In this document: positions 24,678 to 54,870 of the stretch, piece by piece
Layout of the letters: every line of letters starts with the position of its first letter
Position numbering within the stretch: position 1 is the first letter of the stretch
From: Clostridia bacterium
GTDB taxonomy: Bacteria > Bacillota > Clostridia > UMGS1883
Assembly (NCBI GenBank): GCA_045591265.1
Contig: JAZNSQ010000014.1
Span: 69,386 to 133,385, forward strand
Direction: 5' to 3'
DNA: 64,000 nt
Notes under the pieces: generated by a model
The model's database searches: none
The model's input: only the letters and a program-made list of their open reading frames with translations
Told to the model about the DNA's origin: nothing
Translations under genes and position numbers: made by a program

Positions 24678-25694
24678 GTGAAAACAATGTCAATCGTATT
24701 TGATTACTACTATGGTAGTGAGGCAGAGCAATTTACATTTTACAGAATACCAAAATTGCTTATGACCTCGCCGGAATTTAAGCGTGTGTCTGATAGTGCA
24801 AAATTGTTGTATGGTCTAATGCTTGACCGAATGAGCCTATCCATTAAAAACGGTTGGCTTGATGAACAGCAACGAGCATATATCTACTTCACAACAAATG
24901 ATGTTATAGAACAGATGTGTTGTGGTACAGAAAAGGCTACAAAGCTAATGGCAGAGCTTGACAGCGAAAAAGGTATTGGTCTTATAGAACGAAAAAAACA
25001 AGGGCAAGGCAAACCTACGATTATCTATCTCAAAAACTTTATTATTAACAATACTGAGCATCGAAATTCAAGACTTTCGGAAATCGAAAGTCAAGACTTC
25101 GGGAAATCGAAAGTCAAGACTTTTGATAATCAAAATTCAAGAGTTTCGGAAATCGAAAATGCAGACTTTCGACAATCGAAATGTAGTGATAATAATATAA
25201 GTGATAATAAAGAGAATGAAACTGATTTTAATAAGACTATCCTATCATATCCTATCAAAAATGATAATAGTGTGTGTTCGTCTGCTCCAACACAACCACC
25301 CGATATGATACGATGGATTGAAGAAAGAAATACTTATGAACAGCTAATAAAAAGAAATATTGAGTATGACATAATCGTTAAGGAGTACACGGCAGAATGG
25401 CTTGACGAGATTGTGGAGCTGATGGTTGATGTTGTTTGTAGCAAAGAGCCTTATATCCGTATCAACAAACAAGACTATCCACAGGAAATTGTTAAAAGCA
25501 GATTTTTGAAGATTGACAGTTCACACATTGAATATATCAATTTTGCATTAAAAGAAAACACCTCAAATGTCCGTAATATACGGGCATTTTTAATTACCAC
25601 AATATATCGTTCCTTTGAAACCGCTGATAATTGGTACTCCGCAAAAGTAAAACACGATATGGCACACCCTAAAAAGAATTGGAGCGATAGTTGA
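24678..25694 (+). CDS. repA: Replication initiator RepA_N with DUF6017-like C-terminus
   Basis: FYRIPKLL, AKLLYGLMLDRMSLSIKNGWLDE, YIYFT, QGQGKPTIIY; C-terminal SRFLKIDSSHIEY. Confidence 0.88.
   Translation: MKTMSIVFDYYYGSEAEQFTFYRIPKLLMTSPEFKRVSDSAKLLYGLMLDRMSLSIKNGWLDEQQRAYIYFTTNDVIEQMCCGTEKATKLMAELDSEKGIGLIERKKQGQGKPTIIYLKNFIINNTEHRNSRLSEIESQDFGKSKVKTFDNQNSRVSEIENADFRQSKCSDNNISDNKENETDFNKTILSYPIKNDNSVCSSAPTQPPDMIRWIEERNTYEQLIKRNIEYDIIVKEYTAEWLDEIVELMVDVVCSKEPYIRINKQDYPQEIVKSRFLKIDSSHIEYINFALKENTSNVRNIRAFLITTIYRSFETADNWYSAKVKHDMAHPKKNWSDS
25068..25182 (+). repeat. Five 23-bp iteron-like direct repeats inside repA
   Basis: tcaagactttcggaaatcgaaag-like units at 25068, 25091, 25114, 25137, 25160. 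Confidence 0.85.
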
Positions 25695-25879
25695 TGTATG
25701 AAGAAAATTACGAGAAATTAGCAAATGCGATAATATTGCAAGCGGTGTACGATTTCAGAAAAAGCGGTTGTTATCAAACAAGAAATTCCATAAAGCGTTT
25801 CTTCCGTTCAGATTGGTTTAAGGTGTTGACGAATGTTGACGGCGAAATGCTAATAAAGCGATTGGAACAAGAAAGGTAG
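25691..25879 (+). CDS. Small hypothetical protein
   Basis: YEKLANAIILQAVYDFR...FFRSDWF; overlaps repA stop; ends EQER. Confidence 0.75.
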   Translation: MMYEENYEKLANAIILQAVYDFRKSGCYQTRNSIKRFFRSDWFKVLTNVDGEMLIKRLEQER

Positions 25880-25887
25880 GTAAAAAA

Positions 25888-26706
25888 ATGAGTAAAGTAA
25901 TAGCAATAGCAAATCAAAAAGGCGGTGTTGGTAAAACTACAACAACCGTCAATTTAGGTGTTGGTCTTGCTAACGAGGGTAAGAAAGTTTTGCTTGTGGA
26001 TTGTGATGCACAGGGCAGTTTGACAGAGAGTTTGGGTTATCAAAATCCCGATAAGTTAGACATAACGCTATCTACCCTAATGGAAAAGGTAATGAAAAAA
26101 ATACCTATTGAACAGGACGAGGGCATTTTACATCACAAAGAAGGTGTTGATATAGTTCCGGCAAACATTGAATTGTCGGGATTGGAAACAGCACTTGTAA
26201 ATATTGATGAAAGATATAATGTCCTAAAAAACTACATTGACAGCGTAAAAGATAATTATGATTATGTGCTTATTGATTGCACCCCATCTCTCGGTATGCT
26301 GACAGTAAATTCTTTAACTGCTGCTGATGAAGTTATTATCCCTGTTCAAGCTCACTATCTGTCGTTAAAAGGCTTGGAGCAGCTTGTGGCAACAGTAAAC
26401 AGAACAAAGCGACAGCTTAACCCTAACTTGAAATACGGTGGCATACTTCTAACAATGGTTGACCGCAGAACAAATTACTCTAAATCTGTATCTTCTGTTG
26501 TAAGGCTTAATTATGCTAAGTATTTGAAGATTTACAAGACAGAAATTCCCTTATCGGTAAAAGCTGCTGAAACATCTGCTGTTGGTAAGAGCATATTTGA
26601 ATACGACAAAAAAGGCATAGCAGCAGATGCGTATAGAAATCTGACAAAGGAGGTGCTTGAAGATGGCAAACAACGGAATAAACATAAGTCGGAGTACACT
26701 CGATGA
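25888..26706 (+). CDS. parA: ParA/Soj partition ATPase
   Basis: ANQKGGVGKTTT, DCDAQGSLT, IDCTPSLG. Confidence 0.95.
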   Translation: MSKVIAIANQKGGVGKTTTTVNLGVGLANEGKKVLLVDCDAQGSLTESLGYQNPDKLDITLSTLMEKVMKKIPIEQDEGILHHKEGVDIVPANIELSGLETALVNIDERYNVLKNYIDSVKDNYDYVLIDCTPSLGMLTVNSLTAADEVIIPVQAHYLSLKGLEQLVATVNRTKRQLNPNLKYGGILLTMVDRRTNYSKSVSSVVRLNYAKYLKIYKTEIPLSVKAAETSAVGKSIFEYDKKGIAADAYRNLTKEVLEDGKQRNKHKSEYTR

Positions 26707-53367: not shown

Positions 53368-53428
53368 CTATAAATCGGAGTTGCCGCCCCCTTTCGTGGT
53401 GGCAACTCACATAAGGAGGTGAATACTT

Positions 53429-54268
53429 TTGAGCGATAATTGGATTGTTGCCAATCTTGAAAATGCGTTTAGCACTTGGAATGACAAAATGGCAGAAATA
53501 TGGACTTTGATAACAACCTCTCCGCAAAGCTTCAAAGGCGGTACAATATGGAGCGTTGTCGAGGGCATAAACGGTGGACTTCAAGCTATCGGCTACGGCT
53601 TGCTTGTTCTGTTTTTTGCTATGAGCGTATTCAAAAGCACGGCATCTTTTCGGGACTTTCAACGGCCCGAATATGCCTTAAAGCATTTTATACGCTTTGT
53701 CGCTGCAAAAGTGGCTATAACCTACGCTATGGATTTAATGGTGGCATTATATACGATTTGCGGTGGAGTTGTACAGCAGATTGCGACAAGTCTTGGCGGT
53801 TTTGGTGCAGCTTCGGTTACACTTCCGGCAGCTATCGAAACAGCCGTTGAAGATGCAGGATTTTGGGCAAGCATACCCTTATGGCTTGTTACAATCTTAG
53901 GTAGCTTGTTTATAACCATTATGTCATTCATTATGATAATGAGCGTGTACGGACGGTTTTTCCGCTTGTATATGTACACCGCATTAGCTCCCGTTCCTCT
54001 TTCTTCCTTTGCCGGAGAAGGCACGGCAGAAATGGGAAAACACTTTGTAAAATCCTATGTGGGTGTATGTCTTGAGGGAGCTGTAATTGTGCTTGCTTGC
54101 ATTATTTTCTCAGCCTTTTCAAGTGCAAGCACACCAACACTTGATACAAGCATTACAACCGTAACAATGATATGGAAATACATTGGCGAGGTAATTTTTA
54201 ATATGCTTGTTCTTGTTGGTCTTATAAAAGGCTCGGATAGAATTATAAAAGAAATGCTTGGAACATAA
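53429..54268 (+). CDS. VirB6/TrbL-like conjugation membrane protein
   Basis: Multi-TM; YGRFFRLYMYTALAPVPLSSFAGE; TTG start with SD. Confidence 0.85.
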   Translation: MSDNWIVANLENAFSTWNDKMAEIWTLITTSPQSFKGGTIWSVVEGINGGLQAIGYGLLVLFFAMSVFKSTASFRDFQRPEYALKHFIRFVAAKVAITYAMDLMVALYTICGGVVQQIATSLGGFGAASVTLPAAIETAVEDAGFWASIPLWLVTILGSLFITIMSFIMIMSVYGRFFRLYMYTALAPVPLSSFAGEGTAEMGKHFVKSYVGVCLEGAVIVLACIIFSAFSSASTPTLDTSITTVTMIWKYIGEVIFNMLVLVGLIKGSDRIIKEMLGT

Positions 54269-54282
54269 GGAGGATTTTTATT

Positions 54283-54870
54283 ATGAGTTATAACAATGTA
54301 GCAATCAGTAGTGATGACCCGAAAGCTATTGAAAAGCTGACCGAAAAACTTGAAAAATGTCAAGAGAAACAGGACTTTATGAAAAAAGTCAATGCTTATT
54401 ACAAGAAAAACGGCACTTGTCTTGGCTGTGAGGGACTTAACGAACAACAGGCACGAAAACTTGACATTGATGTTCAGACAGGTTATTCGTGGGAAAAACA
54501 GCCGTTTCCGTCATACAAGCTGACAAATAACAGTAGCGAAATTCGCAGATTGAAAAAGCGTATTGAACAGCTTACCGCAAATAAGGAAACAGGCTTTGTC
54601 GGTTGGCAGTTTGAGGGCGGTGAAGCTGTAATCAATGAGGAAAAAAACCGTTTGCAGCTTCTCTTTGATGAAAAGCCGAGTGATGCAGAACGAGCCGCAC
54701 TAAAAGCAAATGGCTTTAAGTGGGCGCCGTCTGACGGAGCGTGGCAAAGACAGCTCAACAGCAACGCTTTTTATGCTGCAAACAGAATTGATTTTATTCA
54801 GCCGGATAACGGTAAAAAGCCTACTGAGTTGCAACCGAAAGCACCTAAAAAGAATGAGCCGGAAAGATAA
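54283..54870 (+). CDS. Soluble DUF3560-like polyvalent-protein domain, KNEPER tail
   Basis: AISSDDPKAIEKL, LTNNSSEIRRLKKRIEQL, NRLQLLFDEKP..LKANGFKWAPS. Confidence 0.75.
   Translation: MSYNNVAISSDDPKAIEKLTEKLEKCQEKQDFMKKVNAYYKKNGTCLGCEGLNEQQARKLDIDVQTGYSWEKQPFPSYKLTNNSSEIRRLKKRIEQLTANKETGFVGWQFEGGEAVINEEKNRLQLLFDEKPSDAERAALKANGFKWAPSDGAWQRQLNSNAFYAANRIDFIQPDNGKKPTELQPKAPKKNEPER

Follow-up and report, generated by a model that had tools for sequence, protein, structure and literature searches.

A terminal-arginine tail on unrelated soluble proteins of a Tn1549-family conjugative element: a candidate type IV secretion address tag

Results

The 64,000-nucleotide stretch of Clostridia bacterium contig JAZNSQ010000014.1 analysed here (positions 69,386 to 133,385, hereafter the window) carries, from ~24.6 to 63.2 kb, a plus-strand train of genes which by domain content and gene order has the hallmarks of a Tn1549-family integrative and conjugative element (ICE). 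We found that about 14 otherwise unrelated soluble proteins of this ICE carry an appended C-terminal tag, in which a run of lysines and arginines is followed by an arginine as the very last residue. Comparison with related loci shows that this tag is selected, modular and element-specific, and that it is read by something that discriminates the last side chain. We favour, with a probability of roughly 55%, the reading that the tag serves as a recruitment or translocation signal for the T4SS (type IV secretion system), putatively recognized by its VirD4-type coupling protein.

Open reading frames (ORFs) that end in arginine account for 16 of the 33 in the ICE and for 3 of the 35 in the chromosomal part of the window (Fisher p = 3e-4), while those ending in Glu-Arg (ER) number 11 and 1, respectively. 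The binomial p values for the ICE ends are 1e-11 for R and 9e-18 for ER. A host-wide C-terminal bias is thus ruled out by the chromosomal ORFs of the same window. The initial annotation of this stretch had described a shared basic tail ending in ER or R, and translation of every ORF end reproduced the ER-stops that it listed (25879, 27589, 28023, 28558, 29897, 30436, 31470, 40462, 40807, 42504 and 54870), the xR-stops (26706, 31882, 44184 and 44851) and the use of four terminal Arg codons (AGG, AGA, CGA and CGC). It also bore out the lack of a tail in RepA, MobC, VirD4, the TrbC/Maff2-like protein, VirB6, PrgI, VirB4, NlpC/P60, the SLH and List_Bact proteins and the integrase. The one chromosomal ER end, which had been named as a control, belongs to an Acyl_transf_3 protein (13463-14503, minus strand) and follows no basic run.

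All of the tails lie on the plus strand. The first two belong to ParA (gene 25888-26706; tail 26668..26703, ..KQRNKHKSEYTR-stop) and ParB (ORF 26657-27589; tail 27551..27586, ..NMYKKKQREMER-stop). ParA orthologues are R-terminal in 29 of 29 cases, with ends IR, AR, TR, LR and VR, and ParB orthologues in 37 of 38, the lone exception being a frameshift. ParA ends and ParB begins in a dual-coding stretch (26657-26720), where a conserved ParB-frame motif, [Y/L]-D-[D/E]-L-F-K-T-D, spans the last codon and stop of ParA; the 28 distinct orthologue sequences listed all have CGA as that last codon, which overlaps the conserved ParB LD[DE]LF frame.

Six tagged proteins follow ParB. They are a 95-aa protein (gene 27736-28023; tail 27985..28020, ..RYRKPKEKEPER-stop; orthologues 18/19 R-terminal), a 176-aa protein (likely start 28028, end 28558; tail 28520..28555, ..KQSKKKKKEPER-stop), whose cluster ends in ER in 4 of 4 members, a 316-aa protein (gene 28947-29897; tail 29859..29894, ..KKKSKSQKERER-stop), R-terminal in 34 of 37 orthologues and in 10 of 10 IMG/VR loci, and a 179-aa protein (gene 29897-30436; tail 30398..30433, ..KFPQRTHKEVER-stop), with 13/13 and 9/9, respectively. 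The 344-aa protein (gene 30436-31470; tail 31432..31467, ..AGIEHKKSEPER-stop) has no coupled start downstream, and is followed by a 124-aa protein (gene 31508-31882; tail 31844..31879, ..CDKMREEKSMSR-stop). The orthologues of the latter are R-terminal in 14 of 14 cases, with a variable residue at -2 (C, S, L, E, I, V or G) and five different Arg codons.

The largest tagged product is a 2852-aa polyvalent protein (gene 31904-40462; tail 40424..40459, ..EQDKKRNKELER-stop), for which 39 of 39 C-terminally aligned orthologues are R-terminal. Next come a 114-aa protein (gene 40463-40807; tail 40769..40804, ..EQNKKKNKEYER-stop) and an AAA_28/thymidylate-kinase-like protein (gene 41908-42504; tail 42466..42501, ..AQRKKRDTAYER-stop). 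The relaxase, of MOBP type (gene 42826-44184; tail 44146..44181, ..EVMQNEHKRRSR-stop), reads ..HKRRSR. PcfB/DUF3801 (gene 44159-44851; tail 44813..44848, ..KKKKNKKKGKNR-stop) is R-terminal in 44 of its 47 relatives in the loci, and in 75 of 150 diverse representatives clustered at 50% identity. The last tail is that of a 195-aa primase-C-like protein (gene 54283-54870; tail 54832..54867, ..QPKAPKKNEPER-stop), with 6 of 7 relatives R-terminal; here the Shine-Dalgarno (SD) sequence of the next gene lies after the stop. Most of those tagged proteins that have no assigned role gave no match in Pfam, NCBIfam or PHROGs, and a Foldseek comparison of the confident AlphaFold2 (AF2) model of the 344-aa protein with the PDB gave no significant match (best E-value 0.06).

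These 14 tails stand as originally listed, while a fifteenth member, the 62-aa ORF at 25691-25879, proved to be false: its orthologues run 4-6 residues past ..RLE[NQ]ER (to ..TENYE) and 0 of 12 are R-terminal. The copy in the window ends exactly after the conserved internal ..RLEQER and is thus slightly truncated, its ER being coincidental. A helix-turn-helix (HTH) protein (40816-41295) is also R-terminal (..SLQR), without a basic run, and its one homologue is not R-terminal.

Two nucleotide repeats were seen at the ends of tagged genes. An exact 28-nt repeat, AGAAAGAGCCGGAGAGGTGATGTTATGC, occurs at 28004-28031 and 28539-28566 and comprises KEPER-stop, an SD sequence and the next ATG at two successive junctions, and a 16-nt repeat, GAGCCGGAAAGATAAG, at 31456-31471 and 54856-54871, closes two other tagged genes. 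Cassettes of tail plus junction may have spread within the element by recombination.

To follow the tails beyond the window we collected ~240 related loci overall, among them 80 from reference genomes (anchored on the 344-aa protein), 80 from metagenomes (anchored on VirD4) and 32 from IMG/VR. ORFs in these loci were called with a simple longest-ORF picker, so that starts are approximate, while the C-termini are independent of the choice of start; some short minus-strand calls are spurious, the effect of which is only a dilution of the background. One Monoglobus 'plasmid' relative, broken by insertions and frameshifts, was left out. The tails are conserved at the protein level in orthologues, a check that the initial annotation had itself proposed. 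Homologues of the 344-aa protein end in ER in 114 of 120 database entries and in 66 of 66 full-length ones, at 41-96% identity, although the residues before ER vary freely (EP, DM, NF, DI, ET, FF and others). Within the loci, 57 of 61 non-redundant members of this family are R-terminal, and the IMG/VR loci replicate R-terminality independently.

All-against-all clustering of every ORF in 160 loci yielded 86 families with at least 4 distinct members, and their distribution is bimodal: 42 of the 86 are less than 10% R-terminal and 23 more than 90%, with 7 further families at 70-90%. Where a family conserves its last residue to at least 80%, that residue is R in 25 cases and any other residue in 5. 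Tagged families found beyond the window include DUF3991-Toprim, SNF2, YodL, DpnD/PcfM-DUF3846, DUF3848, DUF4313, LPD28, DUF6674 and a PcfB-FtsK-gamma fusion. The untagged families of the loci stay largely free of the tag (R-terminal: RepA 0/25, an 82-aa family 0/17, a 69-aa family 1/14, MobC 3/32, SLH 0/7, integrase 0/6), as do those of the T4SS itself (VirD4 2/68, pilin-like (TrbC/Maff2-like) 0/30, VirB6 1/55, PrgI 9/47, VirB4 3/44, NlpC/P60 5/35). The division drawn in the initial annotation between tagged soluble proteins, with roles in DNA processing, partition and anti-defence, and untagged machinery, membrane and surface proteins therefore holds over the ~240 related loci. A hydropathy scan classed 29 of 30 tail families as soluble, while 12 of 37 non-tail families are membrane proteins.

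Alignment of ~400 tails from their ends defines the motif. K or R occupies 40-58% of positions -12 to -5, forming a run of ~6-10 residues, D or E takes 55% at -4, position -3 is free, and the residue at -1 is R. At -2, E is found in 58%, S in 12% and A in 7%, with I, V, C and G also seen. 'ER' is thus the commonest form of a more general x-R-COOH rule in which the terminal Arg is the invariant residue. The original description by positive charge and an ER/R end is too generic, since the terminal Arg is strict, Lys is no substitute and Glu at -2 is only the commonest choice. In a minority of the tail-family members, 1-2 residues follow the ..ER (..ERG, ..ERT, ..ERI, ..ERA, ..ERS, ..KERG; for example in L138, L144, L097, L150, L155 and L061, and P0315, P0331 and P0352). 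These may be sequencing or stop-codon variants, or the Arg may not always be strictly terminal.

The tail has the physical character of a disordered appendage. The AF2 model of the 344-aa protein has a mean pLDDT of 90, with values below 50 for its 5 final residues and coil over the final ~12; in the kinase-like family the tail is a 12-20 aa extension past the domain. It thus sits, unstructured, at the extreme C-terminus, is net positive with a conserved Arg, whose importance is suggested by that conservation, and is carried by soluble proteins, whereas VirD4, VirB4, VirB6, PrgI, the pilin-like protein and NlpC/P60 are only 0-19% R-terminal. These are the properties expected of a VirB/VirD4-type signal.

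A purely nucleotide-level origin had to be considered, in which E-R-stop is an in-frame reading of the SD sequence of the next coupled gene (GAG AGG TGA). In five cases of the window, AGG precedes TAG or TGA and a start follows 4-11 nt later, terminal Arg codons are mildly skewed to AGA, AGG and CGA, and the ER of the 62-aa ORF is probably such a coincidence. Single families, however, use all six Arg codons, both Glu codons and three stops, with unrelated downstream DNA between members; ParB orthologues alone show all six Arg codons, three stops and differing downstream sequence. We also split genes by coupling, defined as an ORF of at least 50 codons starting -8 to +20 nt from the stop. Tail families are R-terminal in 96% of cases with a start nearby and in 89% without, and non-tail families in 5% and 3%, respectively, so that the enrichment remains when SD-overlapping stops are excluded. 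At the window stops 31470, 42504 and 54870 the SD sequence lies after the stop or there is no coupled gene. The codon diversity and the coupled/uncoupled split refute SD overlap as a general explanation, as the initial annotation had argued from the four codons of the window, and leave a coding artefact practically untenable. Selection acts on the protein, at its last residue.

Equally, the K/R run could simply raise affinity for DNA or single-stranded DNA, with the terminal Arg being merely part of the charge. The richness in K/R at -12 to -5 and the DNA-handling nature of most tagged proteins would fit a non-specific polycationic tail of this kind. Yet K, which outnumbers R twofold at -13 to -2, closes just 7 of the 452 non-redundant members of the 30 tail families (those at least 70% R-terminal), against 422 for R. 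Since K dominates the run, these counts imply that the reader senses arginine and not charge; Arg seems to be required at the last position, where Lys is no replacement. Acidic residues are moreover favoured at -4 and -2, and one related element, described below, has swapped its tails for strongly acidic ones. A generic basic DNA-binding tail is rejected on the R-versus-K counts, and we consider the polycationic explanation very improbable.

Two natural experiments separate the tail from the proteins that bear it. The first is the kinase-like family. Its long forms (186-201 aa), with a K/R-rich ..[DE]xER extension, are R-terminal in 40 of 43 cases, while short forms (170-185 aa), 60-70% identical in the domain and with a stop right at the domain end, are R-terminal in 3 of 71. 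The tail-bearing copies (3 of 3, and that of the window) lie between DUF3848/HTH and the MobC-relaxase-PcfB-VirD4 genes, whereas the tail-less ones (5 of 5) belong to phage-like modules for replication and nucleotide metabolism that lack T4SS genes and contain PolIII alpha, helicases, NrdD, dUTPase, guanylate kinase, DnaB and methylases. Phage homologues of the 195-aa primase-C-like protein likewise lack the tail. The tail is thus modular and tracks the conjugative context and not the protein family. In the loci concerned (L206-L209 and L213-L215), the tail-less kinase homologues adjoin a PolIII alpha-type polymerase, with guanylate kinase in 3 of 5 and NrdD, dUTPase and several DNA methylases near, and this neighbourhood suggests a nucleotide-kinase role in phage DNA metabolism.

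The second is concerted switching. In one element (L197 1-17411 and L205 7861-20756; IMGVR_UViG_3300045988_175892), none of the homologues of tagged families is R-terminal, and 7 of 11 plus-strand proteins carry strongly acidic tails with an E-[LIVM] end (..VSVGEEV, ..EELDNEI, ..NEQDLEV, ..EDLDAEL, ..EAAEEEL, ..KEDLEL, ..KDRGMEL), against a background of 35 in 2301 (1.5%). This cohort includes ParA and ParB (both with the Arg lost), the giant helicase, a member of the 344-aa family and the sole homologue found of the 114-aa protein, which in L197 ends in ..EEDLDAEL. The T4SS genes of L197 fall beyond the contig end. A set of A-type Tn1549 ICEs (L165, Vescimonas fastidiosa pMM35_01 589394-630953, and ~29 IMG/VR relatives, L218-L246) also has no R tags; its basic tails end in E-L, E-V or E-I instead, as in PcfB (..KDRGVEL), DUF3849 (..KTHDMEL), a MutS-like protein (..KGKDMEL), ArdA (..KHKGEIEL), a PAPS-reductase-like protein (..KYEMEV) and a methyltransferase. 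Such cohort-wide switching points to a shared, co-evolving receptor.

Both experiments bear on the idea that the terminal Arg is a C-terminal degron, read after the basic tail by a protease adaptor of the host or the ICE, so that the proteins would be short-lived, limiting toxicity in the donor or being cleared after establishment. Strict identity of the last residue and a free C-terminus are typical of C-terminal degrons, of which ssrA-type tags and eukaryotic Arg-end C-degrons are examples, and the tail is disordered and modular. But phage-borne homologues from similar metagenomes and the chromosomal genes of the window have no tag, and a host-wide degron is not expected to be confined to conjugative elements. 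The switching of whole cohorts points instead to an element-encoded, co-evolving reader, and these ICEs have no conserved protease or adaptor gene. We therefore regard degradation as an improbable function.

Among plasmids, compared in a set without Tn1549 itself, the tag is present in a Cohnella plasmid (~7 proteins), in a Paenibacillus plasmid and in a Clostridium plasmid, there on the relaxase and on a DUF3801 protein. The tag as a general property of T4SSs with a CD1115-type VirD4 is ruled out by pCF10, and it is lineage-specific. In pCF10 (L162), PcfB (27856-28341) ends in ..TKGRKL and the relaxase PcfG (33288-34973) in ..DIKPKL; these ..KL ends, very few in number, may be a weak trace of an L-type tag in a system that is open to experiment.

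Discussion

We propose that the tag is a disordered C-terminal address appended to unrelated soluble proteins, in which the arginine would bear the free carboxylate. A single element-encoded receptor would read it, the best candidate being the VirD4-type coupling protein (NCBIfam CD1115 family; 51120..53057, plus strand; itself without the tag), possibly together with PcfB or another adaptor. The receptor would gather the tagged proteins at the type IV secretion channel, and they would then travel with the transferred DNA strand into the recipient, where partition, priming, methylation and anti-defence may be needed before the genes of the element are expressed. The co-delivery of more than a dozen proteins into recipients that the initial annotation put forward is in this sense a prediction, as a donor-side hub tag or a C-degron would produce a like comparative pattern.

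The T4SS reading is the best fit because charged, disordered C-terminal signals are the usual currency of VirD4-type receptors, because the C-terminal extensions of coupling proteins are acidic, because the tagged set overlaps proteins known or predicted to accompany conjugative DNA and because the tag is missing from membrane and machinery components. In the VirD4 family these extensions are short and acidic, with a median net charge of -5. Primases and anti-restriction proteins are among those known or predicted to travel with conjugative DNA, and the tagged families include ParA/ParB, the primase-like DUF3991-Toprim, SNF2-methylase, YodL, DpnD/PcfM, LPD28 and DUF3848. The C-terminal domains of type IV coupling proteins have been found to be Glu/Asp-rich (PMC7434980), ParA, ParB and SSB (the binding protein for single-stranded DNA) were shown to be translocated by an F-type T4SS (PMC8406263), and injection through a T4SS was predicted for polyvalent proteins that have methylase-SNF2, primase, YodL and LPD domains (PMC5512222).

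Several observations weigh against this reading. The relaxase, the one obligatory substrate, is R-terminal in only 26 of 53 relatives and thus appears to be a partial member of the tagged cohort; relaxases elsewhere carry internal translocation signals (PMC8406263). In pCF10 only 2 of 41 proteins are R-terminal, despite PcfB, PrgI and the same VirD4 family (CD1115), which implies that the VirD4 family alone does not dictate the tag. The VirD4 of the window has a basic end itself (..LLRNEKK), and a protein of 320 kDa would be difficult to pass through a channel in which substrates have to unfold. The switched lineages comprise one acidic-type element and a closely interrelated A-type set, the latter being the weaker evidence, and in ParA the terminal codon is confounded by the dual coding with ParB.

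The same comparative facts (one reader, many tagged proteins, a concerted switch and restriction to the element) would also fit a donor-side function, in which the cohort docks on a single ICE protein or nucleoprotein complex, such as MobC/relaxase at oriT, the ParB complex, RepA or PcfB, and thereby concentrates DNA-processing factors without any export. Many of the tagged proteins act on DNA, and such a hub is compatible with an untagged pCF10 that has the same VirD4 family. Several tagged proteins, however, would have no obvious role in a donor, among them the anti-restriction protein of ArdA type that the E-L lineage carries, the primase-like proteins and the polyvalent proteins of methylase-helicase type (PMC5512222), and no candidate hub with a peptide-binding domain was identified. 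We hold a donor hub to be unlikely, if less so than a degron, and continue to prefer T4SS recruitment.

Positively charged C-terminal translocation signals were reportedly described on the Agrobacterium proteins VirF, VirE2 and VirE3 by Vergunst et al. in 2005. The ICE tag resembles these VirB/VirD4 signals in lying at an unstructured extreme C-terminus, in its dependence on Arg, in its net positive charge, in being carried by unrelated soluble proteins and in its presumed VirD4-type reader. The Agrobacterium consensus is a loose one of spaced Arg and is not Arg-ended, whereas the ICE tag has an invariant last Arg, which Lys does not replace, with Glu favoured at -2 and -4, and, unlike the Agrobacterium system, it belongs to a Gram-positive conjugative T4SS. 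Signals in the Legionella Dot/Icm system are Glu-rich (E-block) and C-terminal, with a hydrophobic residue near the end, and are served, in this Gram-negative pathogen, by a type IVB system with DotM/IcmSW receptors. The acidic E-[LIV] tails of L197/L205 resemble them without homology, which we note as a lead only.

SSB has an acidic C-terminal tail ending in Phe that is bound by many partners. On the F plasmid, the C-terminal tail of TraD binds TraM (PMC8406263). Like both, the ICE tag is short and disordered, and a partner would read its last residue and free carboxylate. In F, however, the tail belongs to the coupling protein and is read in the relaxosome, and SSB has one tail and many readers, whereas we propose for the ICE many tails and one reader.

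The F-like T4SS of pED208 transfers ParA, ParB1, SSB, ParB2, PsiB and PsiA, and docking of the relaxosome is needed (PMC8406263). As in our proposal for the ICE, the cargo consists of element-encoded partition and DNA-metabolism proteins that accompany the DNA. For pED208 the transfer was demonstrated experimentally and no shared C-terminal motif was described (PMC8406263), whereas in the ICE there is a shared motif and transfer is predicted from it. The 2852-aa MutS_I-methylase-SNF2 protein is of the same class as the polyvalent proteins of Iyer, Burroughs, Anand, de Souza and Aravind (2017; PMC5512222), and many of the small tagged proteins are solo versions of polyvalent-protein domains (YodL, primase, LPD28). 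In that study an N-terminal ArdC-N 'header' is put forward and no signal at the C-terminus is described; the ICE tag is found also on partition proteins and PcfB, and it would be the missing targeting element of polyvalent proteins.

A full-text search of the literature turned up no account of a terminal-Arg tag for conjugative elements and, for Gram-positive conjugation, no defined protein-substrate signal or list of substrates beyond the relaxase. If the mechanism is confirmed, the tag would be a new, sharply defined variant of the C-terminal T4SS signal and the first for Gram-positive conjugation. More broadly, and at slightly less than even odds, we suggest a C-terminal 'zip code' of the Tn1549 superfamily, in which basic ..E-R, basic ..E-L and acidic ..E-[LIV] variants, with a last residue that differs by lineage, would mark often at least 12 proteins per element for T4SS injection with the DNA. 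A pocket that co-evolves with this residue, in the coupling protein or in an adaptor, would recognize it.

Tn1549 is a vancomycin-resistance transposon (PMC5512222), and, among the conjugative elements of gut Oscillospiraceae and Lachnospiraceae, ICEs of its family were reported to dominate (PMC12084326). If the proposal is true, the tag defines the injected proteome of the commonest ICE family in gut Firmicutes, including 300-kDa polyvalent methylase-helicases, partition proteins, primases and anti-restriction proteins. Being readable in the sequence, it would let the injected set be read off any genome and make the predicted co-injection of polyvalent and accessory proteins directly testable. 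It would also offer a simple handle on the substrate choice of the coupling protein, through the last residue, R versus K, or one added residue. Even as a donor hub or stability signal, one C-terminal residue conserved over ~30 unrelated families, together with lineage switching, would be an unusual way of organising a mobile element, and an undescribed one.

The element and its surroundings

Chromosomal genes, among them those of a Mur ligase, M42 peptidases and the acyltransferase, fill the window up to ~24.2 kb. The ICE train starts with RepA_N/DUF6017, ParA and ParB, followed by several small proteins without an assigned role. In its middle is the 2852-aa polyvalent protein, with MutS_I, DUF6908, an Eco57I-like methylase and an SNF2 helicase, after which come the HTH protein, the AAA_28 kinase-like protein, MobC/NikA, the PF03432 relaxase and PcfB/DUF3801. 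An 1810-aa SLH surface protein and a List_Bact-repeat protein are inserted between PcfB and VirD4. The train ends with VirD4, the TrbC/Maff2-like protein, the VirB6-like protein, the 195-aa primase-C-like protein, PrgI, VirB4, cargo, NlpC/P60 and a tyrosine integrase.

Assignment to the Tn1549 family was based on domain families and on backbone gene order. ICEs of this family are defined by a MOBP7 relaxase, a T4SS of MPF_FA type and the backbone pcfB-virD4-maff2-virB6-prgI-virB4-NlpC/P60 (PMC12084326). The element in the window has the PF03432 relaxase with NikA/MobC, the PF02534 (T4SS-DNA_transf) VirD4 and the PF12846 (AAA_10) VirB4 that are among the criteria for the family, and its backbone genes begin, in the same order, at 44159 (PcfB), 51120 (VirD4), 53044 (TrbC/Maff2-like), 53429 (VirB6-like), 54879 (PrgI), 55216 (VirB4) and 59450 (NlpC/P60). 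The genes for the T4SS channel and wall, all untagged and on the plus strand, span 53044..61807 and encode the TrbC/Maff2-like protein (53044-53367), the VirB6-like protein (53429-54268), PrgI (54879-55295), VirB4 (55216-57546) and NlpC/P60 (59450-61807). Interspersed among them are the tagged 195-aa gene and the PAPS-reductase/GGDEF cargo.

This cargo consists of PAPS-reductase-like and GGDEF-domain genes between VirB4 and NlpC/P60 (57868-59435), and a PAPS-reductase-like gene is found again in the A-type Tn1549 ICEs, there with an E-V tail. Immediately to the left of the ICE is a gene for a 23S rRNA intervening-sequence protein (23778-24182, minus strand), and immediately to the right of the integrase lies a YpsA/SLOG (DprA-like) gene (63298-63798).

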